DNA from: an uncultured delta proteobacterium
GTDB taxonomy: Bacteria; Myxococcota_A; Polyangia; Polyangiales; Polyangiaceae
Reading direction: 5' to 3'
Assembly: GCA_963716725.1 (NCBI GenBank)
Contig: CAVQUB010000021.1
Location: forward strand, 224,001-288,000
Length of the DNA stretch: 64,000 nucleotides
Shown here piece after piece: positions 178-45,154 of the stretch. The notes below the pieces were generated by a model, which searched no databases, was not told where the DNA came from, and saw nothing but the letters and a program-made list of their open reading frames with translations. The number at the start of each line of letters is the position of its first letter. Within the stretch, counting starts at the first letter, position 1. The position numbers and the translations under genes were made by a program.

Positions 178-384
178 GACGCTGGATAGGATGCAACCGG
201 TGGGCCGATCCTTGGGCGGGCCGCGTCAGCCGGCTTCTCGCCGGGATTTCAGGCGCAACGGAGCGGGCAGCCGTTTATTCCCCCGCTGCAATCCGCGCAG
301 GCTCCGGATCAGGAAGTCATGGGGCGATGCACGGAAAGGACCCACATCCGTCGGAGGAGCTCTGAGATATCATCGCCGCCTCGC

Positions 385-1956
385 ATGAGGTGGCTGACCG
401 ACATCGTTGCCGAAGGCAGGAGCACGGGCACGCTCTGGCTGCTCGCTCTGGTCGTGCTCAACGCGCTGCTGGCCCGGCCCAAACAAGTCGACCGGCGGCG
501 GATCGTCGCCGCGCCAGTCGTGCTCTTCGGACTGCACTTGCTCCTGCTGCCCATCGCAGGCTACTTCCGTCAGCGTGGGGCGGGGGCGCCGGGCTACGTC
601 GAGAGCCGCCTGCCCCTGTTGATCTTCGCGGCGCTCACCGCCGTCACCTCGGCGGGCGCCATCGCGTTCACCGTGATCTTGCCGCGGCTACGCCTCGCCG
701 TGCCGCGCATCTTGCAAGATATCGTGATCGGCGCGGCTGCAGTCGTTGCGGTGCTCAGCGTCGCGTCCCGCGCTGGCATCAACCTGTCTGGTCTGATCGC
801 CACCAGCGCCGTGCTCACGGCCGTCATTGGGCTGTCATTGCAAGACACGCTCGGCAATGTGTTGAGCGGGCTCGCGCTGCAAACCGACGACAGCGTCCGA
901 GTCGGCGACTGGATCAAGATGGGCGACGTGAGCGGCCGCATCGTCGAAATCCGCTGGCGCTACACCGCGGTCGAGACCCGAAACTGGGAGACGGTGATTT
1001 TCCCCAACTCGCAACTGGTGAAAGGCCAGGTCACCGTGCTCGGCCGACGCCAAGGCCAGCCGGTAAAGTGGCGTCGTTGGGTCTGGTTCAACGTCGACTA
1101 TCGCTACCCACCCTCCGACGTCATCGGCAGCGTCACCGACGCGCTGCGTTCGGCTCCCATCGACAACGTGGCTGCCGATCCTCCGCCCAACTGCATTCTG
1201 ATGGACTTCCACGAGAGCTACGGTCGCTACGCGGTCCGCTACTGGCTCACGGATCTCGCGGCGGACGATCCGACGGACAGCGCCGTGCGAACGAGAGTCT
1301 ACTTTGCGCTGAAGCGCTCCGACCTGCCGCTCTCCATCCCCGCTCACGCCATCTTCGTCACCGAGCAGACCGCCGAGCTGAAGCAGCAGAAGACGACGGC
1401 CGAGCAGGACCGCCGCCTGCAGATGCTGTCGGGCATCTCCATGTTTGCCAAGCTGTCGGACGACGAACGCGACGCGCTGGCAGGAGCCTTGCGCTACGCG
1501 CCATTTGCGGCTGGGGAGACCATGACCAAGCAGGGCGCCAAGGCCCACTGGCTGTACATCATCGCCACCGGCGGGGCGAGCGTCCGAGTCGCCATCGACG
1601 GAGAAGGGCAGCAGGAAGTCGCGCGACTGAAGGCCGGAGACTTCTTCGGCGAACGCTCGCTGCTCACGGGAGATCCGCGCTCCGCCACCGTCGTGGCAAT
1701 GACGCGGGTCGAATGCTGGCGACTGGATCGGGCAGCTTTCCAGGAGTTGCTGACGCGAAGGCCAGAGATCGCTGACGAGGTCGCCGAGGTGCTCGCGGCC
1801 CGAGCGACCGATCTGGAGCGTGCGAGGGAGAACCTCGGAGCCGAGGCGGCGATGCGCCGAGCAGCCGAGACCAAGACCGATCTGGTGGACAAGATCCGCC
1901 GGTTTTTCCGAGTCGACGCTGAATCCGAGCCGCCGCCGCCCTCGAAGGGGGCATGA
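385..1956 (+). CDS. MscS-family mechanosensitive channel with C-terminal cyclic-nucleotide-binding domain
   Basis: N-terminal TM helices; MscS core (IGLSLQDTLGNVLSG, VRVGDWI, GRIVEIRWRYT, FPNS); cNMP domain (LKAGDFFGERSLLTGDPRSATV); start ATG 385 inferred. Confidence 0.9.
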   Translation: MRWLTDIVAEGRSTGTLWLLALVVLNALLARPKQVDRRRIVAAPVVLFGLHLLLLPIAGYFRQRGAGAPGYVESRLPLLIFAALTAVTSAGAIAFTVILPRLRLAVPRILQDIVIGAAAVVAVLSVASRAGINLSGLIATSAVLTAVIGLSLQDTLGNVLSGLALQTDDSVRVGDWIKMGDVSGRIVEIRWRYTAVETRNWETVIFPNSQLVKGQVTVLGRRQGQPVKWRRWVWFNVDYRYPPSDVIGSVTDALRSAPIDNVAADPPPNCILMDFHESYGRYAVRYWLTDLAADDPTDSAVRTRVYFALKRSDLPLSIPAHAIFVTEQTAELKQQKTTAEQDRRLQMLSGISMFAKLSDDERDALAGALRYAPFAAGETMTKQGAKAHWLYIIATGGASVRVAIDGEGQQEVARLKAGDFFGERSLLTGDPRSATVVAMTRVECWRLDRAAFQELLTRRPEIADEVAEVLAARATDLERARENLGAEAAMRRAAETKTDLVDKIRRFFRVDAESEPPPPSKGA

Positions 1957-5488: not shown

Positions 5489-6010
5489 TCACCCCGCGCA
5501 ACTGCCGTTGGTGCAGGTCTGCTTCTCGGCGCAAGCTCTGCCGCATGCGCCGCAGTTGGCTTCGTCGTAGTTGGGATTGACGCAGCCGCTGGCGCAACAG
5601 ATTTGGTTCTTGCCGCAGTCGTCCCCACCATTGCACGAGCATTGAATATTTCCGCCTTGAGACCGGCAGACTTCGCCCGGGCGACACGAATCCCCGTCGC
5701 ACACGCAGCGCCCGTCGTTGTTGCACTGGACGGATCCGCTCGAAGCACACTGCGCGGCCGCGGTGCAACGGCAACGCTGGCTCTCGCAGACCATGCCGAT
5801 CGGACAGAGACCGCAGTCGCCGGCACCGCCAGCCCCCGCCGCGCCTCCGGCCCCGCCCGCGCCTCCGGCCCCGCCCGCGCCGCCGGCCGCCGTGCCACCC
5901 ACACCCGCCGTGCCACCGGCAGCCCCGGCGTCCGCGAACTCGAAAGCGTCGTAGTCGTTGGTGCAGCCGATGACCAGCATGCCGCAGGCTAGAACGAGAG
6001 CTCTCCCCAT
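5489..6010 (-). CDS. Gly-rich linker / Cys-rich lipoprotein
   Basis: lipobox VIGC, GGAGG linker, many Cys, C-terminal NCGACGRAC motif typical of myxobacterial Cys-rich repeats. Confidence 0.75.
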   Translation of the reverse strand: MGRALVLACGMLVIGCTNDYDAFEFADAGAAGGTAGVGGTAAGGAGGAGGAGGAGGAAGAGGAGDCGLCPIGMVCESQRCRCTAAAQCASSGSVQCNNDGRCVCDGDSCRPGEVCRSQGGNIQCSCNGGDDCGKNQICCASGCVNPNYDEANCGACGRACAEKQTCTNGSCAG

Positions 6011-6074: not shown

Positions 6075-6584
6075 TCACGGCGTGCGCACTTCAATCACCT
6101 CTATTTCGAAGCTCAGAGTCGAGTTCGGCGGGATCTTCTGATGAGCGCGGGCGCCGTAGCCGAGATCGGGCGGGATGGTCAGGCGACGGACGCCACCCTC
6201 GCGCATGCCGGACAGGCCTTCTTCGAAGCCCTTGATCAGATGGCCGCGTCCGAGATCGAGCTCGATGGGCGTGCCACGCTCGCGACTCGAATCAAAGACC
6301 GTACCGTCCTCTAGCGCGCCAACGTAGTGGAGGAGCACGCGGGTGCCGGCGCCCGCCAGCGCCCCCGATCCGACCTTCAGCTCCTCGATCCGGAGGCCGG
6401 AGGCGGTGACGGTGGCGCTCGGCTCCGGGCGAACCGCCGCCGGAGGCGCGGCGGGTGTGGGCACGGCGACCGGCTCGGGCACGGTGACGATGGCACCGGT
6501 CGCGGGAGGCGCGCGTTCGGGAGCCGGCGTCCCGCAGCTCGCGATCAGCAGCGGTGCAAGCCAGATTCTCTCCGATGCGCTCAC
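6075..6584 (-). CDS. FKBP-type peptidyl-prolyl cis-trans isomerase (probable lipoprotein)
   Basis: HYVGALEDGTVFDSS, LIKGFEEG, IPPDLGYG, IPPNSTLSFEIE; GTG overlaps the upstream stop; IASC lipobox-like. Confidence 0.92.
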   Translation of the reverse strand: MSASERIWLAPLLIASCGTPAPERAPPATGAIVTVPEPVAVPTPAAPPAAVRPEPSATVTASGLRIEELKVGSGALAGAGTRVLLHYVGALEDGTVFDSSRERGTPIELDLGRGHLIKGFEEGLSGMREGGVRRLTIPPDLGYGARAHQKIPPNSTLSFEIEVIEVRTP

Positions 6585-7492
6585 GACGGTCCGTGGGTGG
6601 CGCGCGCCACGGCCGCCGCGGTCGACAACGCGGCGGTCACCGGCGCGTCGAAATGAACGTCGACCTGCGGGAACGCGATCACGATGCCCTCGGCGCGGAA
6701 CGCGTCCCAGATCGCCCGCCGCAGCGCCGAGCCGAAGAGCCGACGATTCCACGGTTCGTGGATCAGCAGCGACAGCTCCCAATCGACGCTGTTCGCGCCG
6801 AACTCCACCAGCAATACCCGCGCCTGGCAGTCCTGATCCTTGCCCCCGAATTTCGCACCGACCTCCGCGAGCACGCGGTCGACTCGGTCCAGATCCGAGT
6901 CGTAGGCCACGCCGACCTTCACGCGCAGACGGTAGAGCGGATCCTGCATCGAGTAGCTCTTGATCAAACCTTGTACCAGCGTGGAGTTGGGAATGATCAG
7001 GTCCTCTTCGTCGGTCGAGCGCGCCAGCGTGGCTCGCACGCCCATCTCTTTGACGCGGACCATGGCCCCGTTGACCTCGATGATGTCGCCGGGTTTGATG
7101 GTGCGCTCCATCAACAAGATGACGCCCGACACGAAGTTCTGGGCGATGTTCTGCATCGCGAAGCCGATCCCGACGGCGAAGACCGCTCCCGCCGCGAACA
7201 GGGCGCTGAGTTCGATGCCGCCGGTCTGGAGCGCGACGCCGACCCCGACCAGGATCACGACGTAGTGAAGGAGGCGGGTGATCGCCCGGATACCACCGGT
7301 CTCCGCCTCGACGCCCCGGCGCTTCGCCGCGCGGTGGATCCCCGCCCGAAGCAAGCGCGAGATGATCCACGTCGCGACCACGACGAGCACCATCGTCGCG
7401 AGGGTGGACGCGGTGATCGGGGTCTTTCCAATCGAAAATAGATGCACCTGAGCCAGCTTGCCAACGGGCGAGAGGGCGTTTCCATCAGTCAT
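6581..7492 (-). CDS. MscS-family mechanosensitive channel
   Basis: GIGFAMQNIAQNFVSG, IKPGDIIEV, MGVRAT, IIPNS, GVAYDSD, IAFPQVDVH. Confidence 0.93.
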   Translation of the reverse strand: MTDGNALSPVGKLAQVHLFSIGKTPITASTLATMVLVVVATWIISRLLRAGIHRAAKRRGVEAETGGIRAITRLLHYVVILVGVGVALQTGGIELSALFAAGAVFAVGIGFAMQNIAQNFVSGVILLMERTIKPGDIIEVNGAMVRVKEMGVRATLARSTDEEDLIIPNSTLVQGLIKSYSMQDPLYRLRVKVGVAYDSDLDRVDRVLAEVGAKFGGKDQDCQARVLLVEFGANSVDWELSLLIHEPWNRRLFGSALRRAIWDAFRAEGIVIAFPQVDVHFDAPVTAALSTAAAVARATHGPS

Positions 7493-7574
7493 GATGCGTC
7501 GGGGATACACGCGCCGGAGGGGGCAGCCAAGCCGCGGCGCGGCGCCGCGGCCCGCGAGCGCTGGCCGAAGCTCG

Positions 7575-8459
7575 TCACCCGGCTGTAATTCGCGTCAGAC
7601 GTGCCGGCGGATGGATCCCGTCCCGGCGGAAGGCCTCGGTGACTCGGAGGTGCACCTCGGTTTCGAAGGACTTCTCGTACTTGGTGTCGAGCACGTACGG
7701 ACGCGCTTTCACCTCGAAGGCGAAGTACCCGTCGACCAAGAGCTGCTTGGTGAGCACCGGCACGTCTCGACCCAGAAAGACGTATTGGCTGGTCAGGCAG
7801 GCCTCGCGGATGATCTCGCGCGCTCGCCCCACGTCTTGGTCGATGCCGATGTAAAACGCCATCGGGACCTGCATCTCCAGCGCGCCGTAGTTGCCGCAAG
7901 ACGTGACGTCCGTGAGCACCTTGTTGTTCGGGATGGTGACGATGTTGTGATCGAGCGTGTTCATCTGCACGCTGCGAAGTCCGATCTTGATGATGTCGCC
8001 GTACTGGCCGGCGTATTCGACTCGGTCCCCCACTTGGAAGGGTCGATCGAACATGATGGTGATGCCGGCGATGAAGGCCGCGACCAGATCTCGCATGGCG
8101 AAACCCACGGCGAAGGCCAAGGCGCCCCCGATGACCGTGACCGCGGTCGGGTCGAGACGCACGCTCAAGCCGACGCAGACCGCCACCGTCACGATGTAGG
8201 TGACGAAGCGAGTGATCGACTCGACCTTCTGAATCACCATGCGCCGCGCGGTGAATCGCTTGCCGAGACCCTCGGCCACCCCCTCGACGATGCGGAGCAA
8301 GATGATCGCGCCGAGGACCACGAACACCGAAACGAACACACCCCCCGCGCGGACGAAGCTCACCAGCTTGCCGACTTCGGGCAGGTCCTGGGCCTGGGCC
8401 GGCAGCGACCAGACAAAGACGACGAGCGCGACGAGCGCGACCTGCAAGCGGCGAGTCAT
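7575..8459 (-). CDS. MscS-family mechanosensitive channel
   Basis: AVGFAMRDL, DRPFQVGDRV, IGLRSV, TIPN; ATGA overlap with the upstream NTPase gene. Confidence 0.9.
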   Translation of the reverse strand: MTRRLQVALVALVVFVWSLPAQAQDLPEVGKLVSFVRAGGVFVSVFVVLGAIILLRIVEGVAEGLGKRFTARRMVIQKVESITRFVTYIVTVAVCVGLSVRLDPTAVTVIGGALAFAVGFAMRDLVAAFIAGITIMFDRPFQVGDRVEYAGQYGDIIKIGLRSVQMNTLDHNIVTIPNNKVLTDVTSCGNYGALEMQVPMAFYIGIDQDVGRAREIIREACLTSQYVFLGRDVPVLTKQLLVDGYFAFEVKARPYVLDTKYEKSFETEVHLRVTEAFRRDGIHPPARLTRITAG

Positions 8460-11400
8460 GCGGCACCGGGCCGGGTCGGGTGGAGCAGGTATCGCCGCCG
8501 CAGGAAACGCGTCACCGCGCGGTACCAGGGCCAAGGCACCGAGTAGTTGTCGTCGCCAAATTCGACGAAGCCGCGCGCCTGCCCATAGCGCAGCGTATCC
8601 TGGACCTTGGCCAGCGGGATCATGGTTGCGTCGCTCACTTCTCGAGCGCTGGAATCCTCGAGGCGCACGAGCGCGCGCAGAACGAAGAGCGACGCATCCG
8701 GCAGGCGCTCGAGCTCGGCGATGTCGGCGGGCTCGAAGGGCTCCACCCGCGCGGCCCCGTCTTCCGCGAGGCTCAAGCAGCTGCGCCAGGCGTGGATCGC
8801 CAGTCCCGGATTGCCCTCCGCGTAGTCCCACATCATGCGGCTGTAAGCGATCTCGGCGCGTTGACGCGCTTCTTCGCGGTCGAACGCGTCCGCGTCGGCG
8901 GGCAGGTCGTCGATGACCACGGAGAAGTCCGGCGTGACGCCGGCTTCTTTGCAGCGCAGCCGGATCAGGCGAACGATGGCCTCTTCTTGCCAGCGTCGCA
9001 GCACCAGCGCCTCGTCGAAGGCCGGGCGTGCGCCGCGCGCCAGCTCGAAGAAGCGCCAGACGACGTCATCGATGGCGAACACCCAGGCCGAGCGCGAGCT
9101 GTACTTGCGCGCGACCTCGAGCAGTCGATCCATCGCGTCGAGGCCGCCCATGGTGGGACGGATGAGCCGGTGAGCGTCGTCGAGCAGCAAGGCAGCGTCA
9201 TCTCCGCCCTGGTCGAGCTTCTCGCCAATCTCGTCGAAGGTGGCTTCAGCCCGGAGACCGAGCGCTCGAGCAATGGCGGGCTGGAGTTCGGTGAGGCCGC
9301 CCGGTGGGCAAGTCACCAGCGTCACGGTCTTGCGCTGACCCTGCATCCGGTGCAGGAGCGTGGTCTTTCCAAGACCTCGCTCTCCGACTACGGCAAAGAC
9401 GCCGCCGCCCCGGCGGTCGATCTGCTCGAGCAGCTCATTGGCCTCCTCGTCCGCAGCGCTGGTGACCAAGCTCATGGAAGGCGTCTCGGGGTCCAACGCA
9501 CGCAGGAGCTCGTCCGAGAGCGACGCGCGCGGTTCCCGGCCATCACCCACGACCTTCTTGCTCATCTCGCGCTGAAACAGGTAGGCCAGCAGGCGCCGCG
9601 TGAGCTCCAGCCCGGTGGTCCACGCGCGGATACGACGGCCCACGCCCGTGCCGAGCAAGAACACGCCTGCGAGCGCGGCCACCGGGAAGCTCACCCAGCC
9701 GGCTTTGCGGGCGTCGACCCAGCGATCGAAGGGGCGCTTCTTGCGCTTGGTGGCCACGATCTCGAAGATGATCGGCTTCCACCAGTGCACGATCACCAGC
9801 GCCACCGGCAGCGCGGCAAACCAGCCCGCGGAGAACACCCAGGTGTAGATGGTGCCCTTGCCCACGACGACGTCGGTGACCGACAAGATCGCCCCAAAAA
9901 CCACCACCGCGCGGCTGATCAGACGCAGGGAGGCGATCCGGATGTGGCGCGTCTGCATCTGGGTGACGCGAACCAGCCGCCCGCTGCCCTCCCCGGCGAG
10001 CGCGTCCGCGACATCGACCGCGAGCGCGCCGCCCACGGTCCAACCCACGATGGCGACGGGGATCCTGATTTCCAGCAGGCCGAGGATCTCCGGCGGCAGG
10101 AATCGATACAAGACGTATAGGACGACTGCAATCTCGAGCCGAGCGCGGATCCGGATCAAGAACTCGACGCTGCGTTCGGCAAAGCTCGGGCCGACGAGCG
10201 CGCGGCTGCGGCGCGCTTCTCGCAGGCGGTCGAGCAAGGGAACGAGGAAACCCTCGGCCCGACGGCGCCACCACACATACACCGCCAGAACGAAACCCCA
10301 GGAGAGCGCCACCGCGCCGACGCCGAGCACCGAGTCCGTCCGCGCCGGACTCGAGGTACCGAGACCGCGCAGGTAGATGATGGCGTTTCGGAGGCGCGCT
10401 CGGAACGTGAGCGCGACCTGGCGGGCTTCCGCCGCGCCTTGGTCGCGACCCGCCGCCCCAAGGCCCGTCAGCGCGTCGCGCTTGCCCGCAGAGACCAAGG
10501 GCAAGAGCTGCAAGCGGCCGCGGTTGAGCTTCTCGATCTGGGCCGAGAACGCCGCAGCGCGGCCCTGCTGGGCTGCGCGCTCCTCTCCCGCCAGGGTCCG
10601 CTCGGCCTTCTCCAGGTCCGCGCGCTTCTTCGTGGCTACCTCGACGTTCACCTCGGCGGGCAGCTCGCTCAGCGGATTGCCCCCGACGCTCGGCACGTCG
10701 GTATGCGAGGAAGAGAGCGCCGTGAGCGCTCGATCGAGCTCGTCTCTGGAGCCCTTGAGGGTCTTCCGGAGCTCGTCGTAGAGAGCGTCGACGGACTCGC
10801 CGCCGCTCTTCTGCGGCGCGGCCGCTTCGATGGCCTCGCGGATCCGACGCTGCCAGGTCAGCGTGGTCTCGGCCGCCGCATCCAGCGCTTGTCTCCGTCG
10901 CACGAGCTCGCCCTCGAACTCGGCCTGCTGCTTCTCGACGGAGAGCAGTCGCGCTTCCTCTTCGGCCACCGTTCGAGCGGCCTCGGTTCGGGCGAGGCGG
11001 GCGACCTCGAGAGCGCGCTGGCGGCTCTCCTCGGCAGCGAGCGCCTTCTTGCCCGATTCGCGGAGCTCCTCTTCAGGCGTGTCGACCCGCTCGGTCTTCT
11101 GGCGCTCGGTGTGACGCTTCAGGAGCGCCTCGCGATCGGCCTGGGGCTTGCGATAGAAATCGAGCCGCGCGGCGTCGAGCGCGAGCCGGGACTGCAAGAG
11201 GATCGAATCGTCGCTCGGGACAGCGGTAGCGCCAGGCGCAGCATCGGCGCCAGCATCGAGCTCAGCCCGCTCCGGAGGCACGCCAAGCACGCGCTCGAGC
11301 CGCACGATCTCGACGGCGATGGCGTTCTCGTCTGCGAGCGGCACGTCGAACAACGACTGCGGCTCGACCGTCACGTCGAGCTTCTCTGCCAAGAGGGCCC

Positions 11401-11575
11401 GGACACGCTCCACCTGTCGCGCGAGCGCCTTCACCTCTTCGGGGTGGTCGGCGATCTCGCCCGCGTCGGCGCCGGGAGCTAGGCTCACCTCGGCATCCGG
11501 CCCCGCATCGGCCCCGGCCACGCCCGCCACGGCGACCCACGCGCTCAGCAGGGCCCAAGCTGTTCTTCGGCGCAT
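8456..11575 (-). CDS. large membrane protein: signal peptide, coiled coil, multiple TM helices, C-terminal P-loop NTPase (AAA+/STAND-like)
   Basis: signal peptide; long A/E/R-rich helical region; several hydrophobic segments; Walker A GERGLGKT, Walker B LLLDDAH, EGNPG. Confidence 0.75.
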   Translation of the reverse strand: MRRRTAWALLSAWVAVAGVAGADAGPDAEVSLAPGADAGEIADHPEEVKALARQVERVRALLAEKLDVTVEPQSLFDVPLADENAIAVEIVRLERVLGVPPERAELDAGADAAPGATAVPSDDSILLQSRLALDAARLDFYRKPQADREALLKRHTERQKTERVDTPEEELRESGKKALAAEESRQRALEVARLARTEAARTVAEEEARLLSVEKQQAEFEGELVRRRQALDAAAETTLTWQRRIREAIEAAAPQKSGGESVDALYDELRKTLKGSRDELDRALTALSSSHTDVPSVGGNPLSELPAEVNVEVATKKRADLEKAERTLAGEERAAQQGRAAAFSAQIEKLNRGRLQLLPLVSAGKRDALTGLGAAGRDQGAAEARQVALTFRARLRNAIIYLRGLGTSSPARTDSVLGVGAVALSWGFVLAVYVWWRRRAEGFLVPLLDRLREARRSRALVGPSFAERSVEFLIRIRARLEIAVVLYVLYRFLPPEILGLLEIRIPVAIVGWTVGGALAVDVADALAGEGSGRLVRVTQMQTRHIRIASLRLISRAVVVFGAILSVTDVVVGKGTIYTWVFSAGWFAALPVALVIVHWWKPIIFEIVATKRKKRPFDRWVDARKAGWVSFPVAALAGVFLLGTGVGRRIRAWTTGLELTRRLLAYLFQREMSKKVVGDGREPRASLSDELLRALDPETPSMSLVTSAADEEANELLEQIDRRGGGVFAVVGERGLGKTTLLHRMQGQRKTVTLVTCPPGGLTELQPAIARALGLRAEATFDEIGEKLDQGGDDAALLLDDAHRLIRPTMGGLDAMDRLLEVARKYSSRSAWVFAIDDVVWRFFELARGARPAFDEALVLRRWQEEAIVRLIRLRCKEAGVTPDFSVVIDDLPADADAFDREEARQRAEIAYSRMMWDYAEGNPGLAIHAWRSCLSLAEDGAARVEPFEPADIAELERLPDASLFVLRALVRLEDSSAREVSDATMIPLAKVQDTLRYGQARGFVEFGDDNYSVPWPWYRAVTRFLRRRYLLHPTRPGAA

Positions 11576-11681: not shown

Positions 11682-13860
11682 ATGGCCGGCGCTCCGAGTG
11701 ATCCGTTTGGGTGGGTGGGCGCCACCGCGGACGCCAAGTACGTCATCGAAGAGTGCATCGGAGAAGGTGGCTTTGCGGTCGTGTACCGCGCCAACCACCT
11801 GGGCTTCGGCGAGAAGGTCGCCTTCAAATGCCTGCGGGTCCCCGAGGACTTCAAGGGCGAGGACAAGGATCGCTTCTTCGAGAGCTTCTTGCACGAAGGC
11901 AAGCTGCAGCACCGCCTGTCGAGGATGACCGCTGGCATCGTGCAGGCCCTCGACGTCGGCGCGGCGACCTCGCCGACCGGGCACTGGACTCCCTATCTGG
12001 TGCTCGAGTGGCTCGAGGGTCGGACCCTCGAGCGGGACATGGACGAGCGGCACAAGTTGGGAGCTCGGGGACGGCCCCTCGCCGAAGCGCTCACTCTGCT
12101 CGACCCCGTCGCGCGAGCCCTCGATCTGGCTCACGAACAAGGCGTCGCGCACCGCGACGTGAAACCGGCCAACCTGTTTCTCGCCGAGATCGGCGGCAGG
12201 CAAACCATCAAGGTCTTGGACTTCGGCATCGCCAAGGTCATCACCGAGACGGCCAGCGTGACCCGAGCCTTCGAGGTCACGGGGCGAACGTTGCAAGCAT
12301 TCACCGCCCACTACGGCGCGCCGGAGCAGTTCGCGCGCCGCTTCGGGGCCACCGGACCCTGGACGGACGTGTTCGCCCTCGCGCTCGTCCTGATCGAGCT
12401 GGTCAGCGGCAAGCGTGCGCTCGAGGGCGAGGACGCCGCGGAGCTCTTCGTCTCGTCGGCGGATTCTGGAGCACCGGCCCACGCTGCGGGCCCGCGGAGT
12501 CGACGTGAGCGATCCCGTCGAAGAGGTGATCCAGGTCGCGCTCTCGGTGGATCCGAGGGCCCGCTACCGCAACATGGGAGAGTTTTGGACCGCGCTGTCG
12601 GACGCCGCGAACTGGGCGCCGCGCGCCCAAATGTCGTCGCACGCCGCGGTGCTTCCCTCGGACACGTACCTGCCCACGTCCGACGGAGCAGCCATCGACG
12701 CGCTCTTGCCGTCCTCGCCGCCGCCGGACGCCCTGACAGCGGTGGGGCCGCCGCCGTCTCTGCAACGAATGCCAGAGGCTTCGACTCAGCTCTCGTCGAG
12801 CACGCAGGTACCGATAGAACCCGGGCAGGCCGCCGTCGAGATCGTGCCCGGCCGGCGCGGCCGGCTGCTCGCGACCGTCGCCGCGGGCAGCATCGCCGTC
12901 GGCGCCCTGATCGGAGGCGGCGCTTATCTGGCCTCGTCACGTCGCCCGCCGAGCGCAGCGGCGTCGGCCGCGGCCGTGCCCGAAGCGAGCGTGGCGTCGA
13001 GCGCAACGCCTGCGCCCGAACCGAGCGTCGCCCCTGCGCCAGCGTCGGCGTCCAGCCGACCGGAGCAGCCGCGCCCGTCGCCGCTCGCCAGATCGATACC
13101 GGCCGGCGCCGTTCCTGGTTCTAACGCCTGGGTAGAGGAGTTCCGCACTCAGTCGCTCCCCGACGACGCCGGGCGCAGCGTGCTGGAGGCCCAGACCAAG
13201 TGCGCAGACGCGGGGCTCTCTCTGTGCACCGAGCAACAATGGGCTCGAGTTTGTGCGGACGACGCGACCGTGGCGCGCGATCCGTCGTGGACGCTCTCCG
13301 CGCAGTCGCATGGGTTCGTGGTGCGAGGCGGCGGCGCGTGCACCATCCGCGCGGTCGCAGCCGGCGCGAGCGCGGCGCCGGACCGGCGCGGGCTCTGCTG
13401 CGAGCGGTCGATTGCCATCGAGTCCAACAACCGCAACAAGAACTTCGTGGTCGCAACCTCCCGCGCCCTCGAGAAGATCGAGGCTGCGCTGAACGCGCGG
13501 CGCACCAGCGTCTTCATGGGGCTCGTGAGTGACGGCGCGTCCATCGACGGTGAGCCTCGAACGCTCGCCGAGATCGGCAAGATGCTGGATCAGTCGTATC
13601 AGCAGTTCCCCGATCAATGGACCATCATCGATACCTGCAGCGTGAGCATGAAGGCCGTGGTGCGGGCACCGCTCAAGCCCAACAAGAGCAAACGAAAGCC
13701 TCGACCCCCCGAGAGCTCGTCGTGGAGCGCCGAGTGCGAAGTGCTCCGGCAGCGCGGCGGGCAGATCAGCGTCGTGACCACCAGCTACGTGATCGCGGGC
13801 AACGGCCGCCTGCAGCGCATCGACGACATCCGCACCAGCCGGCCGTGGTCCAAACCGTGA
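11682..13860 (+). CDS. membrane-anchored Ser/Thr protein kinase, split by a +1 frameshift near 12464-12465
   Basis: IGEGGFAVVY, VAFK, HRDVKPAN, LDFGIAK, YGAPEQ, WTDVFAL; removing one T in GATTCTG joins the two ORFs (..SSAD-LEHRPTL..); TM segment and Cys-containing extracellular part follow. Confidence 0.85.
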
Positions 13861-14318
13861 GGCTGTCGGGCGTGCTTCTGACCCTCGGCGTCGGAGGCTG
13901 CGCGCACGTCGCTCCGCTGCCCCAGCCGCTGCCGCCGGCGGCAGGAGCCCCGCCCTCGCCGAGCCCCGCAGCAACGACGGCGCCCGGCGCCTCACAGCCG
14001 GAGTTGGCGCCCACCACTGCGCTCGACGGCGAAGCGACGTACTACTCGGACAAGCTCGCCGGGCGAAAGACCGCCAGCGGCGAGCGCTACGATCCCGCGG
14101 CGCTGACCGCCGCGCACCGCTGGTTGCCCTTCGGCACGCGCGTTCGAGTGGTGCGCGTGGACACGGGCAACTCGGTGCTGGTGCGCATCACGGATCGTGG
14201 TCCCTTCGGGAAACCGAGCCGCATCATCGACCTGTCGAAGGCAGCAGCGAGGCAGCTCGACATGCTCCGGGCTGGAGTGATCCGCGTTCGCGTGGAAGTG
14301 CTGCCGCCCGGAGGCTGA
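13857..14318 (+). CDS. rlpA: RlpA-family lytic transglycosylase (DPBB) lipoprotein
   Basis: GEATYY, GRKTASGE, LTAAHRWLPFGTRV, VRITDRGPF, IIDLSKAAA; lipobox VGGC; no SPOR domain. Confidence 0.9.
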   Translation: MRLSGVLLTLGVGGCAHVAPLPQPLPPAAGAPPSPSPAATTAPGASQPELAPTTALDGEATYYSDKLAGRKTASGERYDPAALTAAHRWLPFGTRVRVVRVDTGNSVLVRITDRGPFGKPSRIIDLSKAAARQLDMLRAGVIRVRVEVLPPGG

Positions 14319-14325
14319 ATTCGCC

Positions 14326-14814
14326 TCAGCCGGCGTCCTTGCTCATCTCCAGATAGACGGTGATCGAGCTGCGCTCCGCCGCGGTATCCACGGCGAGAGT
14401 CACGTTGTTTGCGGCCTTCTGAAAACAGTCGTTCAAGGTGGCGGAGCCCGGTCCCGAGTGCGACGCCGACACGCTCTTGCGCTCGCCCTTGACGAACAAG
14501 TAGCTCAAGATCATGCGGCCCGCGGCCTCCGGCGTCGCTTCGAGCGTCGCCGCGTAGCAGGATTCGAAGGCCTCCCCCTGGCTCTCCAGGCCCTTGCGCA
14601 CCGCGGCCTCGTCCACGCCGCCACCCTGAATCTCGACCTTGCTCACGGCGACGCGGCGCGGCGCGGGCGGGGCGTTCGCTTCGGCGGTATCGGCCGCCGT
14701 CGGGCCGGGCTCCGAGCTGGGACCCGCGGGCGGCGGCGCAGGCGAACCCCCACAGCCGAAGCCAACGAGGCTCATGCAAGCAACGACGCCGATAGACCAA
14801 GTGGGAGCACGCAT
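14326..14814 (-). CDS. hypothetical lipoprotein (possible AgmX/PglI C-terminal-like domain)
   Basis: lipobox GFGC, Pro-rich linker, FESCY...GRM...NDCF pattern. Confidence 0.55.
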   Translation of the reverse strand: MRAPTWSIGVVACMSLVGFGCGGSPAPPPAGPSSEPGPTAADTAEANAPPAPRRVAVSKVEIQGGGVDEAAVRKGLESQGEAFESCYAATLEATPEAAGRMILSYLFVKGERKSVSASHSGPGSATLNDCFQKAANNVTLAVDTAAERSSITVYLEMSKDAG

Positions 14815-14866
14815 TTTCGCGTAACTGACCCAAGTCAGAGTCCGCCGTCAAGGGTCCAGAGCGACC

Positions 14867-15118
14867 TCAGAGCGTGCCGGAGTGGGCTCGCAGCAGAGCG
14901 TAGAGCTCGTCTTTCAGGTGCAGGCGCTGTTTCTTGAGAACCTCGAAGGCAAAGTCCGACATGGGAACATCCGCCGCTTCGGCCTTCACCACCTCGGCGT
15001 TGGTCGCGGCGTAGCGGTCGAGGAGCTCCTTGAAGCTCGCGTCGCTGAGCCGCAGCTCGGCGATCTGCGCTTTGTGATCGGGGAACTCCGACTCCAGATC
15101 GTGCGATTGAACGTGCAT
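14867..15118 (-). CDS. YdcH / DUF465 family small protein
   Basis: HDLESEFP...LKKQRLHLKDEL signature; AAGGAG RBS. Confidence 0.85.
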   Translation of the reverse strand: MHVQSHDLESEFPDHKAQIAELRLSDASFKELLDRYAATNAEVVKAEAADVPMSDFAFEVLKKQRLHLKDELYALLRAHSGTL

Positions 15119-17380: not shown

Positions 17381-19405
17381 ATGCGCGCCCGTCGCCCCCT
17401 CATCTGCTCGCTCCTCCTCGCTCCCCTCGCCTGCTCCCCTCGCGAGGCTGCCCGGCCGCCGCCGCCGCTCATGCCGCTACCGGCCCCCGTGGCCGCGGCT
17501 CCGGCTCCGCCGCTGACCTACGACGCGCTCGACCGCCGGGCCTTCAATCAGCTCGCCGTGCGCATGAACCTGCCGGTGTACTGGGCGCACGACTCGAACG
17601 CGAACAAGGTCGTCGACGCCGACGAGATCCGCGGGCTCTTGTTCTACCCGACGTCGCCGCCGTGGGTCCGAGGCGGCAGGCTGAGCCCGGAGTTCGACCT
17701 GGCCTACTCGGGGATGCTCGCGTCGCTCCACCCTCCGAGCGTCGATCTCGACCCCGCCGAAGCAACTCGGCGCGCGCTCGTGCTCGAAGACCTCGACCAA
17801 GGTCGAACGACGCTCATTCACAGCGACTTCCGCGGGTTCGCGCCCTCGGACCGCGCCGCTGTCCGTTCCATCGTCGCGGCGGCCCTGGAAGTCGAGCGCT
17901 TGTTCGCGACTCAGACCGGGATGACAGCCCTCGAGAGCAAAGTCCCGAGCGACCACGCGGCCAGTCAGAGCCTGTTTCGTCGCAACTGGGGCTCGAAGTG
18001 TGAGGGCCCCAAGACCGAGAAGAACCCCGCGTGCAGCGCCATCCCCGGCGCGCCGAAGCGCAAGGTGGATCTCTACCCTGCCAGCCTGCAAGACGATCCG
18101 CAGTTCTGCGAAGCCCTGGAAAAGCGCAAGGACGCCAAAGACCTGCTGGCTCCCTTCGTCGTCGTCCGAGAGCAAGACGGGCAGCTCGTGCCAGTGAAGT
18201 ACTCGAACGCATACGCGCGCGGCATGCAGATGGTCGCGGCGCACCTCGACGCCGCCGCAGGGTCCCTCGGCACCGACGAGCGCGCCTTCGCCGACTACCT
18301 GTCGGCTGCGGCCCGCGCCTTCCGCGACAACGACTGGGAGGCCGCCGACGAAGCCTGGTCGAAGATGAGCGGCAAGGGCTCCAAGTTCTACCTGCGGATC
18401 GGGCCGGACGAGACCTACTGGGAACCCTGCAGCCAGAAGGCGGGCTTTCATGTCAGCTTCGCACGCGTCAACAAGGACTCGCTGGTCTGGCAACAGAAGC
18501 TCTCGCCTTTCCGGCAGGAAATGGAGGCCGCGCTCGCCAAGCTGATTGGGTGGCCGTACCGAACTCGGACGGTGAACTTCAAGCTGCCCGAGTTCATCGA
18601 CGTCGTGCTCAACGCGGGCGACAGCCGCGCGGCCTTCGGTGCCACCATCGGTCAGTCGTTGCCGAACTGGGGCAAGGTCGCCAACGAGAGTCGCGGTCGT
18701 ACCGTCGCCATGGCGAACCTCTACACGGACCCCGACTCATTGCAGGCGAGGCGTGAGCAGGCGCAGTCGCTGCTCGACAAGTCCACGGCCAGCCTGCTGC
18801 GCGACGACGCGATGCCCGGGCTCTTGGCCACCGTCCTCCACGAGGCGACGCACAACCTCGGCCCGAGCCACGAGTACACTTTCATGGGCAAGACCGACAG
18901 CCAAGCCTTCGGCGGCGGCCTCGCTTCGATGCTCGAAGAACTCAAGGCGCAGAGCGGCGCGCTCTACTTCTTGGACTTGCTCGTAAAGAAGGCAGTCATC
19001 ACCGAAGAGGTGAGGCGGCAGTCGTACCTCGACAGCGTCGTGTGGTCGTTTGGCCACGTCGCGCAGGGAATGTGGACCGACGAAGGCACCCGCAAGCCGT
19101 ACAGCCAATTGGCCGCGATTCAGCTCGGCGTGTTGATGGAGGCCGGCGCCGTGGTGTGGGACGCCACCGCGATCGCGGCCAATGGCAGCGACGTAGGCGC
19201 CTTCAAGCTGCAGTTCGACAAGTTCCCGAGCGCCAGCCAGCAGCTGATGCGCCAGGTCGCACAGCTCAAGGCGCGAAACGACAAGAAGGGCCTCGAAGCC
19301 CTGGCAAAGAAGCACGTCGATGGCGGCCAGGTCCCGCAAGGCATCATCGCGGAGCGGGTGCTGCGCTTCCCCAAGAACAGCTTCGTCTACTCCGTGGATC
19401 TCTGA
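17381..19405 (+). CDS. zinc metallopeptidase, M49/DPP III-like lipoprotein
   Basis: lipobox PLAC; IGPDETY, GQSLPN, HEATHNLGP, EELKA. Confidence 0.7.
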   Translation: MRARRPLICSLLLAPLACSPREAARPPPPLMPLPAPVAAAPAPPLTYDALDRRAFNQLAVRMNLPVYWAHDSNANKVVDADEIRGLLFYPTSPPWVRGGRLSPEFDLAYSGMLASLHPPSVDLDPAEATRRALVLEDLDQGRTTLIHSDFRGFAPSDRAAVRSIVAAALEVERLFATQTGMTALESKVPSDHAASQSLFRRNWGSKCEGPKTEKNPACSAIPGAPKRKVDLYPASLQDDPQFCEALEKRKDAKDLLAPFVVVREQDGQLVPVKYSNAYARGMQMVAAHLDAAAGSLGTDERAFADYLSAAARAFRDNDWEAADEAWSKMSGKGSKFYLRIGPDETYWEPCSQKAGFHVSFARVNKDSLVWQQKLSPFRQEMEAALAKLIGWPYRTRTVNFKLPEFIDVVLNAGDSRAAFGATIGQSLPNWGKVANESRGRTVAMANLYTDPDSLQARREQAQSLLDKSTASLLRDDAMPGLLATVLHEATHNLGPSHEYTFMGKTDSQAFGGGLASMLEELKAQSGALYFLDLLVKKAVITEEVRRQSYLDSVVWSFGHVAQGMWTDEGTRKPYSQLAAIQLGVLMEAGAVVWDATAIAANGSDVGAFKLQFDKFPSASQQLMRQVAQLKARNDKKGLEALAKKHVDGGQVPQGIIAERVLRFPKNSFVYSVDL

Positions 19406-26719: not shown

Positions 26720-27859
26720 GTGCCGCGGTTCCTGCTCGTCGCGCTGACCAGCGTCGTCCCGCTGGCGATCGCGTTCTTGGTTTGGCGGCTCGTCAGTCGA
26801 CAAGGCCAGGTTTCTCGGGGCCGCACGGCGCTGGTCGTCGGCCTCGCGCTGTTGGCTGGGCTCGGCGCAGGTTGGCTCGAGCGCGTCGTGCTCACCTTCG
26901 CCGATCTCTCTTTCGACGCCGCTCGCGCGGGCACGACCGGCGCGCTGCTCGCGACCTTCCTCCTGGCGGCTCCCCTCGAAGAGGGGCTGAAGGTCTTGGT
27001 GGTGTGGCCGCTCTACAGCACGCGCGCTCTGGTGTCTCCGCGCCTCGGCCTCGTCTACGCGGCCTGCGCTGGCGCAGGATTCGCGGCGGGTGAGGGCATC
27101 AGCATTGCTAGCTCCGAACCGCCCTCGACGCTGTTGGCGGCGCGGCTCTTGCTCGGGATGCTGGCGCACCCCTTCTTGGCGGCAATGTGGGGCTACGCCC
27201 TCGGCACCCAGCGCGCCGCGCGTGGTCGCTGGTTCGTGATCGCTTGGTTTTCGTCCGTGGCCCTGCACGGCCTGTACGACCACATCGTGTTTGGTCGCGG
27301 GCCGGGCGTCTTGGTGCTGGCCGTACCCATGTTCTTGACGATGGCGGCGGCCAGCTGGGCCGCGCTGCGCGACGTCGCGCCAGCCCCTGACTCGCGCGCC
27401 TCGCGGCTGCTCTCGAGCAGTCCGGAGCCGCCGTCGCTCCGAAGCATGCGCCACGCACTCGCACGGCCGGAGCGTCCGCTGATGCTGCACTGGATCGCGA
27501 TCGGCGCCCTGGTCACCCTCGGGGTCGTCCTGGTCGCGCTCGCGGGAGCGGTGTACGTTGGTCACGCAATTGGGGTCGACTTCGCGCTGGCTGACGAGAG
27601 CGACGTGCGCTCGAGCGGGCCTCTGGTGCTGCTCGGCGCAGGCGTGCTCGCGGGGTTTCCCGTCGCCGGTTACTTGGTCGCGCGCGCGAGCTCCGCTCAC
27701 AGCGTGCTCGAGCCGGCCATGGGAGCGGGCGTCGCCATCATCGCTGCGGTCCTGCTCGCTTCCCTCGCCGCGCCGGTGACAGCGGTGTTCGGCTTGGCGG
27801 CGGCCCCGCTGGCGTTTGCGCTTGCGTGCGGCGGCGCCTGGTTCGGGCTCGTGCGCTGA
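26720..27859 (+). CDS. PrsW-family glutamic intramembrane protease
   Basis: APLEEGLK, GAGFAAGE, AHP, LHGLYD; multi-TM. Confidence 0.85.
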   Translation: MPRFLLVALTSVVPLAIAFLVWRLVSRQGQVSRGRTALVVGLALLAGLGAGWLERVVLTFADLSFDAARAGTTGALLATFLLAAPLEEGLKVLVVWPLYSTRALVSPRLGLVYAACAGAGFAAGEGISIASSEPPSTLLAARLLLGMLAHPFLAAMWGYALGTQRAARGRWFVIAWFSSVALHGLYDHIVFGRGPGVLVLAVPMFLTMAAASWAALRDVAPAPDSRASRLLSSSPEPPSLRSMRHALARPERPLMLHWIAIGALVTLGVVLVALAGAVYVGHAIGVDFALADESDVRSSGPLVLLGAGVLAGFPVAGYLVARASSAHSVLEPAMGAGVAIIAAVLLASLAAPVTAVFGLAAAPLAFALACGGAWFGLVR

Positions 27860-27865
27860 GCCCCT

Positions 27866-27889
27866 TGGCACACGCCCGATCTGGCACAA
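27866..27889 (+). promoter_or_regulatory. tandem TGGCACA motif, putative activator binding site
   Basis: TGGCACA-CGCCC-GATC-TGGCACAA; same architecture at 28877-28900. Confidence 0.55.
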
Positions 27890-27950
27890 CATGCGCTCGG
27901 CCTGCCCCGGCGCGCAGCCGACGGTCGGCGAGAATCGCGACCTTTGTGCG

Positions 27951-27966
27951 TGGCACGAGCCCTGCA
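27951..27966 (+). promoter_or_regulatory. sigma54 (-24/-12) promoter
   Basis: TGGCACGAGCCCTGCA, GG-N10-GC spacing, just upstream of ATG 27980. Confidence 0.7.
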
Positions 27967-27979
27967 CTCGAGTTCGGCC

Positions 27980-28837
27980 ATGCGTTTTGCCATTGGCTTG
28001 TTGGTGATCTCGGGTCTGGCTCTCGTCGGTTGCGGCGGCTCCACCATGCTGGACGGCAAGGGCGGGGCCGATGCCGGCGCCGGCGCCGGCGGAACCTCCG
28101 GCGGTGGCACGGGCGGAGGCGCGTCGGGATCCGGTGGCGTGGCGGGCGCCGGTGGCGGCAGCTCGGGCGCCGCGGGCGGAGGCGGGGCCGCCGGCAGTCC
28201 CGGCTGTTGCAGTGCAAACGCCAAGTACGACTGCGAAACCTACGGCGACTCGAAGCAGTGCGTGAACGGCGTCTGCAAAGAGCCGCCGCCGCCGGGACTC
28301 TGCTGGTCGGATCAAGACTGCGGCGGACTGGGATCCGTCTGCAAGGGAGGGTTCGTGTGCCCCTGCGACGCCGACTGCTCGGGTCCCGATCAGCTGGGAC
28401 AGTGCACTGTGCAGCCGGGGTGCTGCGCGAAGGACGCGGACTGCACGCAGAAGCCCAACGTGCCGATGATGTGCGTGGGGGGAAACTGCGAGATGAAGCC
28501 CCCCGCGGGGCAGTGCTGGAGCAGCAAGGACTGCAGCAACGGGACGACATGCAGCGGCGAATGTGTCTGCCCCTGCGGCGCGATGTGCGCGTGCGGCGGG
28601 CAGATGGGGTGGTGCAAGGGCTCCCCGCCGCCACCGCCCCCACCCACGGCGTGCTGCAAGTCACAGCTCGACTGCGGGGCCGGATCCGTGTGCGCGATGG
28701 GCGTGTGCAAGCAGTCCGTCGCAGGCGCCTGCTGGGCCGACGTCGAGTGTGCCCAAGGCAAAAAGTGCAACGGAGCGTCGATCTGCCCATGCGGTGCCCT
28801 GTGCGGCATGGCCGAATACCCGGGCAAGTGCCTTTGA
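27980..28837 (+). CDS. Gly-linker, Cys-rich repeat lipoprotein
   Basis: lipobox LVGC; three repeats of CC..DC...C..G.C...CW...DC...C.CPC. Confidence 0.75.
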   Translation: MRFAIGLLVISGLALVGCGGSTMLDGKGGADAGAGAGGTSGGGTGGGASGSGGVAGAGGGSSGAAGGGGAAGSPGCCSANAKYDCETYGDSKQCVNGVCKEPPPPGLCWSDQDCGGLGSVCKGGFVCPCDADCSGPDQLGQCTVQPGCCAKDADCTQKPNVPMMCVGGNCEMKPPAGQCWSSKDCSNGTTCSGECVCPCGAMCACGGQMGWCKGSPPPPPPPTACCKSQLDCGAGSVCAMGVCKQSVAGACWADVECAQGKKCNGASICPCGALCGMAEYPGKCL

Positions 28838-28876
28838 CCGCGGCGCGACCTGACACGCCGCGGGCGTCGCGTCCGC

Positions 28877-28900
28877 TGGCACATCCGGGATCTGGCACAA
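28877..28900 (+). promoter_or_regulatory. tandem TGGCACA motif, putative activator binding site
   Basis: TGGCACA-TCCGG-GATC-TGGCACAA. Confidence 0.55.
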
Positions 28901-28943
28901 GGCCGAGCCCCGCTGATTTCCAGACGTTGGGGCTGGCCCGGGG

Positions 28944-28959
28944 CGGCACGGAACCTGCT
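28944..28959 (+). promoter_or_regulatory. sigma54 (-24/-12) promoter
   Basis: CGGCACGGAACCTGCT, GG-N10-GC spacing, upstream of ATG 28975. Confidence 0.55.
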
Positions 28960-28974
28960 CTGACCCCGCTCATC

Positions 28975-31913: not shown

Positions 31914-32046
31914 CGCGCAAGAGCCTTCCACACCCGCCGTTCCGGGGAAACGCCCGCCCGAAAGCAAATCACCTCCTGGCGGCAGCGCCGGCTGCCGCCC
32001 GCCGAATTCGACGACCGGGCGCGCGGACGCCCGTATAGTCGGAGTG

Positions 32047-44984: not shown

Positions 44985-45154
44985 TGATCCCAAAGCCTCT
45001 CATGCCGCGGTACGGTGGTCGAGCCGAGCGAGCCGCCAACCAATCTTCGCCCCCGTCGGCAGCGGAACGGCGCTCGCGGGACCTGAAGCCTCGACGCGCC
45101 CCAACTCGGGACAAGACGTTGCCGCCAACAGCACGAACGATGAATACTACGGCG

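Follow-up and report, generated by a model that had tools for sequence, protein, structure and literature searches.

What could a large membrane nucleoside triphosphatase (NTPase) be doing when its gene overlaps that of a mechanosensitive channel? This question is raised by two adjacent genes, here called BIG and MscS1, in a 64,000-nucleotide (nt) stretch of contig CAVQUB010000021.1 from an uncultured delta proteobacterium of the Polyangiaceae (assembly GCA_963716725.1, positions 224,001 to 288,000 of the forward strand). The whole stretch is referred to as the window, and positions are counted from its first letter. The two genes, found as open reading frames (ORFs), are as follows.

8456-11575, minus strand: BIG (the name used here), a large membrane NTPase of 1039 amino acids (aa), an ORF without internal stops
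7575-8459, minus strand: MscS1, an MscS-family channel of 294 aa that has a signal peptide of its own, recognized as an ORF and by Pfam

On balance, we favor the reading that BIG and MscS1 are two subunits of one dedicated membrane channel system, in which the nucleotide switch of BIG would control gating or assembly of the channel. We are led to it by the domain anatomy of the two proteins, their near-obligate and coupled pairing, the conservation of the nucleotide-binding residues, and an interaction prediction that passes weakly. We infer the physical complex, its stoichiometry, and a direction of control that runs from the NTPase to the channel. The evidence is computational throughout.

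The BIG-MscS1 pair in related loci

The BIG stop codon and the MscS1 ATG overlap by ATGA at 8456-8459, as a preliminary description of this DNA had stated. To see how far this arrangement extends, related loci were collected with a search profile built from 13 BIG sequences, which found 106 relatives in species-representative genomes; the loci counts given below rest on 80 of the 106. The labels of these 80 loci are nearly all Polyangiaceae, Polyangiales, Polyangia, Nannocystales, Myxococcales, or "delta proteobacterium" metagenome-assembled genomes (MAGs), and the Gaiellaceae and Caulobacter labels of two loci are probably binning errors.

By tblastn, 76 of the 80 loci have an MscS1 ortholog (45 to 77% identity) immediately downstream of BIG and in the same orientation. 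In three others (L024, L061, and L069) the contig ends first, leaving 76 of 77 testable loci that keep MscS1. The preliminary description had staked its proposal of an NTPase-linked channel on the linkage of BIG homologs to MscS, and this linkage stood, MscS1 adjoining BIG in all testable loci except one. In the MscS1 frame, a start codon with the 4-nt overlap on the BIG stop is available in 47 of the 76 loci, and a possible start lies ≤25 nt from the BIG stop in every one of them (76/76). The pairing is kept even where BIG identity falls to 31 to 33%, in the Nannocystales-labeled loci L059, L062, L073, L074, and L078. The pairing of BIG with MscS1 is far beyond chance. These linkage figures are those of tblastn; clustering of the flanks with a codon-position GC filter undercounts MscS1 (49 loci versus 76), and flank cluster 2, considered as a neighboring gene family, was rejected as an antisense shadow ORF of BIG.

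In the sole exception, L009, the place of MscS1 is taken by a CASTOR/POLLUX-type channel of 656 aa that carries an RCK domain (13036-15006, plus strand; Castor_Poll_mid E value of 7.4e-17). It looks as though the partner has been swapped here for one from an unrelated channel family.

Anatomy of BIG and MscS1

A word-indexed protein search returned 36 full-length BIG homologs at 29 to 54% identity, either unnamed or called "AAA family ATPase." A profile of the BIG N-terminal region found 797 representatives at an E value of ≤1e-3, and 488 at ≤1e-30, among 1.84 billion sequences (50% clustering). A stored BIG homolog used as the query in the ESM Atlas retrieved its own family at 0.99 only, with other leads at <0.9. 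BIG is taken here as the founding member of an uncharacterized, sizeable, and entirely unannotated family, and a partner and a topology for BIG therefore aid the annotation of myxobacterial genomes. The predicted parts of BIG are listed below; transmembrane is abbreviated TM, AlphaFold2 is abbreviated AF2, and residues are those of the 1039-aa protein.

11504-11575, minus strand: predicted signal peptide, residues 1-24, running MRRR...AGA/DA with the cut at the slash (sequence)
10346-11503, minus strand: periplasmic all-helical domain of long antiparallel helices, residues ~25-410, ~385 aa (AF2)
9596-10345, minus strand: membrane module, residues 411-660, with five TM helices and a hydrophobic helix at 626-646 (hydropathy)
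8459-9475, minus strand: cytoplasmic Orc1/Cdc6/STAND-like AAA+ module, residues 701-1039 (Foldseek and Pfam), consisting of a nucleotide-binding domain (NBD; 701-860), a helical lid (861-935), and a winged helix (936-1039)
9362-9385, minus strand: Walker A motif GERGLGKT, residues 731-738
9176-9190, minus strand: Walker B motif LLLDD, residues 796-800
8804-8815, minus strand: GNPG motif in the lid, residues 921-924

ORF analysis, Pfam, AF2, and hydropathy bear out the preliminary description of BIG as a 1039-aa protein with a signal peptide, a helical region, TM segments, Walker A and B motifs, and a GNP motif. The signal peptide hinges on the ATG at 11575, because a database twin of BIG (P0007) is annotated as 1024 aa, 15 residues shorter; a hydrophobic N-terminal stretch is present in 81 of 96 family members, which backs that ATG.

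The AF2 model of BIG, built with 96 family sequences, has a mean predicted local distance difference test score (pLDDT) of 88.7 and a predicted template modeling score (pTM) of 0.67. It places an alpha/beta P-loop domain at 720-860, a helical lid at 864-932, and a winged helix at 953-1027. Searched against the Protein Data Bank (PDB) with Foldseek, the full model gave 249 matches at an E value of ≤1e-3. The best was archaeal Cdc6/Orc1 (1fnn_A; E value of 1.3e-7, TM-score on the target of 0.45), and further matches included 2qby, 1w5t, and 2v1u (Orc1/Cdc6), plant NLR resistosomes, RuvB, 2qen, 2fna, and Apaf-1. Sequence searches of the PDB with BIG and with its C-terminal profile found generic P-loop proteins only (a designed P-loop protein, ABCF, and ABC), and these matches say nothing about the clade of the module.

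AAA_22 (PF13401) matches residues 723-818 with an E value of 5.3e-11 (43.4 bits against a cutoff of 27) and is the only family to pass its Pfam cutoff in the window protein, where NB-ARC, NACHT, nSTAND, and ORC-CDC6-like are all subthreshold. Across 61 BIG members, Pfam matches were recorded for AAA_22 (61), AAA_16 (61), nSTAND_NTPase5 (52; best E value of 4e-6), NACHT (45), ATPase_2 (37), NB-ARC (35), and ORC-CDC6-like (31). According to AF2 and Foldseek, BIG follows the STAND layout, in which an NBD precedes a helical domain that contains Gly-x-Pro, and a winged helix comes last. No repeat sensor or effector domain was found by Pfam in the window protein or in 61 N-terminal regions.

The motifs of STAND families are a Walker A of the form GxxGxGK[ST], a Walker B of the form hhhhDD, and a lid Gly-x-Pro, and the last two are usual in STAND-type switches and not in AAA+ motors. 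Where Orc1/Cdc6 proteins have a Walker B of the form hhhhDE, BIG has DD, or DN in some members. In the alignment of 96 family sequences, G734 and G736 of Walker A are invariant (96/96) and K737 is present in 93; D799 of Walker B is present in 94, and position 800 is Asp in 78 and Asn in 13; in the lid motif, G921 is found in 96, N922 in 95, and P923 in 95. To judge from this alignment, the nucleotide-binding residues of BIG are under selection.

The preliminary description had also noted a winged-helix-turn-helix-like tail. A winged helix is present; it is a domain of the NBD-lid-winged helix unit and not a separate DNA-binding add-on. In STAND and Orc modules the winged helix is integral to this unit and by itself is no sign of DNA binding, and the tail of BIG belongs to the ATPase because its module is an Orc1/Cdc6/STAND-like unit of this kind by Foldseek. 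If the tail did bind DNA, BIG could be a membrane-tethered signaling or DNA-binding protein that, on a periplasmic cue, controls transcription or anchors DNA; BIG and MscS1 would then be cotranscribed without any contact between the products. This agrees with weak TrmB/MarR-type matches (E value of 2e-4 in the window BIG; TrmB in 11/61 members and MarR_2 in 9/61), among them a TrmB-type winged helix at 965-1010 with an E value of 1.1e-3, below the Pfam cutoff. It agrees as well with the DNA-binding nature of the nearest solved folds, the Orc1/Cdc6 proteins, and with a strongly basic, conserved C-terminal helix (R1019 in 92/96 and R1027 in 96/96). However, besides the integral place of the winged helix in the unit, the 4-nt overlap in many lineages and the channel swap in the lone exception imply a tie to the channel, and the interaction prediction described below, itself graded as weak support, is far above its controls. 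We therefore consider this explanation very unlikely.

Residues 46-677 of BIG are entirely helical in the AF2 model, with a longest single helix of 55 residues. The periplasmic helices are predicted at 46-62, 83-98, 122-141, 145-164, 167-194, 198-252, 259-288, 312-360, and 374-407, the longest being 198-252 and 312-360, and their pLDDT is mostly >90. Hydropathy averaged over the 96 sequences puts the TM helices at approximately 415-436, 480-497, 503-525, 553-572, and 578-598; helix 626-646 is less hydrophobic than these five. The mean number of Lys plus Arg is 5.8 to 11.6 in loops 437-478, 526-552, 599-625, and 647-680 and only 0.6 to 0.8 in turns 492-503 and 570-579, which supports a predicted topology with the N terminus outside, the C terminus inside, and five spanning helices. 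Since the segments on both sides of 626-646 are rich in Lys and Arg, that helix is unlikely to cross the membrane. Conservation within BIG peaks in the TM4-TM5 hairpin (0.69 for residues 553-600), whose periplasmic turn reads VGKGTIYxW, with V571, G572, G574, T575, Y577, and W579 as its conserved residues.

Searches with the N-terminal regions of 61 members against Pfam at an E value of ≤10 found no recurrent family, the commonest match occurring in 4 of them; MscS_porin (PF12795) and MscS_TM (PF12794) matched 0/61 even at this threshold. A separate AF2 model of residues 1-700 (pLDDT of 87.5, pTM of 0.74) had no Foldseek match in the PDB at an E value of ≤1e-3. Its top two matches among 350,542 PDB chains were both E. 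coli MscK (7ux1, E value of 0.048 and probability of 0.87; 7uw5, E value of 0.055 and probability of 0.72), and the next match had an E value of 0.5 and a probability of 0.13. The MscK matches cover ~530 columns each with TM-scores of 0.15 to 0.17 and root-mean-square deviations of 22 to 24 Å, and they are not significant. They are suggestive of a likeness of build in the modeled structures, which is no evidence of membership in the MscK family.

MscS1 matches MS_channel_2nd (PF00924) at 67.1 bits against a cutoff of 20.2 (E value of 1.5e-18). Its family profile aligns to Thermoanaerobacter tengcongensis MscS (3t9n) over positions 78-285 with an E value of 6.2e-17, and also to E. coli MscS, MscM, MscK, and YnaI, TM3 and the C-terminal vestibule domain being alignable; the single-sequence Pfam matches to TM2/3 and the C-terminal domain fall below the cutoff. 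MscS1 is nearer to small MscS proteins than to MscK, both by NCBIfam (1.4e-14 versus 5.9e-12) and in the PDB (6e-17 versus 1e-11). By these alignments MscS1 is an ordinary three-TM MscS core and a predicted channel.

The 70 MscS1 orthologs have a mean column identity of 58%, clearly above the conservation of BIG. A hydrophobic leader is found in 59 of the 70, an AxA-like cleavage site in 63, and an F[IV]RWGG-like motif directly before TM1 in 69. A cleavable leader is unusual for a small three-TM MscS. Its removal would leave a conserved short peptide on the periplasmic face, the side on which the most conserved turn of BIG is predicted to lie, and one may speculate that the peptide and the turn touch.

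Predicted interaction and proposed function

The preliminary description had suggested modeling BIG together with MscS1. Complex prediction with BIG residues 400-1039 and MscS1 residues 24-294 scored 0.41 (runs of 0.41, 0.50, and 0.40), which passes the mark and is graded as weak support; the best of 3 controls scored 0.01. In the benchmark, 116 of 157 solved complexes and 2 of 215 mismatched pairs pass this mark, and passes at a score of ≤0.60 comprised only 18 of the 157 solved complexes together with both passing mismatches; these benchmark counts hold only roughly, since custom alignments went into the prediction. At least 95% of contacts agreed between runs, and the partner pLDDT was ≥76. 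The pass may be partly due to likeness to the solved MscK and MscM structures. Because the genomic prior is strong, we take the prediction as modest added support. In an exploratory comparison, pairwise over 55 loci, the divergence of the N-terminal and TM part of MscS1 tracks that of the BIG TM module best (r of 0.74, with other BIG regions at 0.54 to 0.66), although this mirror-tree result is confounded by shared phylogeny.

If the two proteins do form one channel system, it could work as follows. MscS1 would form the pore, and BIG would be a separately encoded accessory subunit whose five-TM module packs on the outer TM helices of the channel and which puts its helical domain in the periplasm, much like the fused N-terminal half of MscK or MscM. 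On the cytoplasmic side, the Orc1/Cdc6/STAND-type module would switch slowly with nucleotide. As it binds and hydrolyzes ATP, the module would change in shape or in oligomeric state, and this change would determine whether the channel opens or how much tension opening takes. The nucleotide cycle of BIG might instead decide whether the complex assembles at all. MscS is the textbook case of gating by lipid tension without helpers, and a coupled large accessory subunit would add a regulatory layer to it. The pairing, if real, would tie turgor release to nucleotide state or to a periplasmic cue, and it would be an independent split-gene counterpart to the fused MscK and MscM, whose periplasmic and extra TM domains remain poorly understood.

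A more specific form of this system, in which seven BIG subunits encircle the MscS1 heptamer in the membrane, like the fused domains of MscK, and their STAND-like modules oligomerize beneath the cytoplasmic cage when they bind nucleotide, to open or lock the pore, we regard as unlikely. Such a ring on a ring would bring nucleotide-driven, resistosome-like control instead of, or besides, membrane tension. It would also be the first nucleotide-switched channel of the mechanosensitive type, a bacterial STAND-like oligomerizer wired to a ready-made ion channel.

The same data can be read with BIG outside the working channel, as an assembly or quality-control factor that inserts, oligomerizes, or turns over the MscS1 heptamer. 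Membrane AAA_22 proteins of the GspA/ExeA type do help to assemble another multimer, and AAA_22 is the family matched by BIG above the Pfam cutoff. The tight cotranslation of the two proteins would suit such a role, as would the leader and conserved mature N terminus of MscS1, an unusual feature that needs translocation; the weak-pass prediction fits transient contact equally well. Against this, MscS-family channels assemble unaided elsewhere, as is generally known and as a review indicates (PMC13591265). In addition, the large conserved periplasmic domain and the five-TM module exceed what a chaperone would seem to need, and the D/N variation in Walker B and the NBD-lid-winged helix build indicate a switch and not an unfoldase. 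We consider an assembly factor improbable.

Several observations weigh against BIG and MscS1 being two subunits of one channel system. Gene adjacency, however tight, is no proof of a complex, and the interaction prediction is a weak pass without a reported interface. No BIG-MscS fusion was seen by length among the 36 homologs, and the 10 family members scanned with Pfam, several of the longest among them, carry AAA_22 only. Sequence homology of the N-terminal 700 aa to MscK was rejected: hhalign gave 0.3% against E. coli MscK and 0.2% against a 14-sequence MscK alignment, a shallow profile (82 to 100% identical) because the protein search returned only MscK sequences at ≥80% identity. With Asn as the second acid of Walker B in 13 of the 96 sequences, hydrolysis may be dispensable in part of the family; the substitution hints that these members bind nucleotide and hydrolyze it poorly. 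In one locus, L013, the MscS1 ORF is cut to 169 aa (13016-13522, plus strand) while BIG is intact. Lastly, canonical MscS gates on lipid tension alone, without accessory proteins, according to the review (PMC13591265).

The MAG that carries L013 also holds a second pair, L002, which is intact, and the broken MscS1 could stem from decay of a second copy or from misassembly. A gene for a Usp-domain membrane protein begins where the L013 channel breaks off.

Neighboring genes and known systems

The genes around the pair, and two further channel and transporter genes in the window, are listed here.

319-1956, plus strand: bCNG-type channel of 545 aa (MS_channel_2nd E value of 3e-15; cNMP_binding E value of 2e-21)
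5489-6010, minus strand: predicted Cys-rich lipoprotein, with a Gly/Ala-rich linker followed by a Cys-rich C-terminal region
6075-6584, minus strand: FKBP-type lipoprotein (FKBP_C E value of 1.9e-30; lipobox-like LIASC)
6581-7510, minus strand: MscS2, a second MscS paralog (MS_channel_2nd E value of 9.7e-16)
11682-13124: Ser/Thr kinase, divergent, upstream of BIG
29727-32612, minus strand: prokaryotic cation-chloride cotransporter (CCC), with AA_permease and both CCC C-terminal domains (E value of ~1e-39)

Pfam thus identifies the second MscS and the FKBP that the preliminary description had placed next on the same strand. The gap between MscS1 and MscS2 is 64 to 82 nt, and the GTG start of the FKBP gene at 6584 overlaps the MscS2 stop (GTGA, 6581-6584), so that the window holds a second translationally coupled pair of a channel and a periplasmic partner. 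In sequence, MscS2 is like the core of MscK, with an E value of 2.9e-45 against the NCBIfam model of MscK (model positions 833-1093). The bCNG-type gene is the third MscS-family gene inside 12 kb, and the CCC gene is 18 kb away from the BIG-MscS1 pair. The sole Pfam match of the Cys-rich lipoprotein is weak (Stig1-like, E value of 0.039). Elsewhere in the window, where G+C runs at 66 to 72%, three ORFs have no Pfam match at an E value of ≤1e-4: 17381-19405 (plus strand, 674 aa), 27826-29706 (plus strand, 626 aa), and 43419-44993 (minus strand, 524 aa). A promoter and terminator scan and Rfam across the operon gave nothing exceeding background.

None of the window's other neighbors recurs as a conserved partner of the pair. 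Linkage to the CCC gene, which the preliminary description had raised alongside linkage to MscS, did not hold up (0/80 loci by tblastn within 10 kb). The FKBP gene was also absent by tblastn (0/80) and is specific to the window, and the Cys-rich lipoprotein had no tblastn homolog in the 80 related loci. MscS2 orthologs occur in 6 of 81 loci (window included), directly after MscS1 in 3, and Ser/Thr kinases occur in 16 of 81 at no fixed position, which is to be expected in myxobacteria with their many kinases. Directly behind MscS1, a further MscS paralog is present in 11 of 77 pairs. In eight loci (L023, L028, L029, L031, L052, L056, L060, and L067) the gene at this place is of a third, distinct MscS type and lies ~0.9 kb past the BIG end (MS_channel_2nd E value of 1.7e-9 in L023). 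Many of the pairs are therefore part of short runs of MscS paralogs. Na+/H+ exchangers are near the pair in 9 to 10 loci, TerC in 6, and a Usp-domain membrane protein in 5. Going by these annotations, the recurrent but variable neighbors are ion and osmotic genes, and because of them the physiological signal is probably ionic or osmotic stress.

Variable flanks would also suit a defense or dormancy cassette, in which BIG is a transmembrane STAND-type sensor and MscS1 its effector: a trigger in the envelope or cytoplasm (a phage, a toxin, or another conflict signal) would make BIG oligomerize with nucleoside triphosphate and force the channel open, collapsing ion gradients or turgor, so that the pair would be no osmotic safety valve. 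The pair is indeed a compact two-gene cassette whose flanks vary between loci, it is present in two copies in some MAGs (L002/L013 and L004/L019, each in the same assembly), and its STAND/Orc-like module matches plant resistosomes and Apaf-1 by Foldseek and, below threshold, nSTAND_NTPase5 in 52 of 61 members. Phage defense is known to include P-loop NTPases of the membrane that change ion content, and some STAND effectors are pore forming (PMC13001434). However, PADLOC 2.0, a 2023 release that newer defense systems would escape, had no match for BIG, MscS1, or MscS2 at an E value of ≤0.01. Of 117 flanking ORFs, 5 matched PADLOC at ≤1e-5 (three generic Ser/Thr kinases, one GlgB-like protein, and one weak match), which indicates that there is no defense island around the pair. 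The recurrent neighbors are ion-homeostasis genes, and Avs-type STANDs have a repeat-type sensor and an N-terminal effector that are both missing from BIG. We find a defense role quite unlikely and keep to that of a dedicated channel system.

No description of an MscS protein paired with a P-loop or AAA+ protein was found in the full-text literature, with most subscription journals outside its reach, and a literature search found no STAND or Orc1/Cdc6 member paired with an MscS channel. A 2026 review of MscS-like channels, searched by term, has no mention of "ATP" and states that MscL and MscS are activated without accessory proteins (PMC13591265). The statement in the preliminary description that no characterized example is known agrees with the literature searched and with this review.

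Among known systems, E. coli MscK and MscM (7uw5, 7ux1, and 11sm) are like the pair in having a signal peptide, a large helical periplasmic domain, extra TM helices, and an MscS core. In MscK, the periplasmic domain (~470 aa) consists of two helical bundles, and the TM helices number eleven (PMC13591265). Eight of the MscK helices are extra, whereas BIG has five and one that is probably non-spanning. MscK and MscM are single polypeptides without an NTPase; here the extra module and the pore are split in 77/77 pairs, and BIG carries an NTPase. Of the split MscK-like system put forward in the preliminary description, the architectural analogy stands, with MscK as the top Foldseek match at a nonsignificant E value of 0.05, while kinship in sequence does not: the hhalign values are 0.2 to 0.3%, the MscK Pfam domains are missing from all N-terminal regions searched, and MscS1 is no closer to MscK than to small MscS proteins.

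The bCNG channels likewise combine an MscS-family pore with a nucleotide-binding regulatory module, but theirs is a cNMP-binding fold fused in cis at the channel C terminus, whereas here a P-loop NTPase sits on a separate membrane subunit. Tmn/YobI and KAP/PifA resemble BIG as membrane-anchored P-loop NTPases, and their nucleotide cycle is linked to the movement of ions or to the integrity of the membrane (PMC13001434). Their TM helices are inserted in or beside the P-loop domain, in contrast to those of BIG, which belongs to a different NTPase clade; moreover, the pair has no PADLOC match, and its pore is a separate canonical MscS. Orc1/Cdc6 and STAND proteins (Apaf-1, plant NLRs, bacterial Avs, 2qen, and 2fna) have the tripartite NBD-lid-winged helix build in common with BIG. 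Compared with STANDs, BIG lacks both a repeat sensor and a nuclease or protease effector, and its module is attached to five TM helices and a periplasmic domain. The channel family and the fold class of the NTPase are known; the new element is that the two occur as a strictly kept pair of genes, together with a membrane module that has no annotation.

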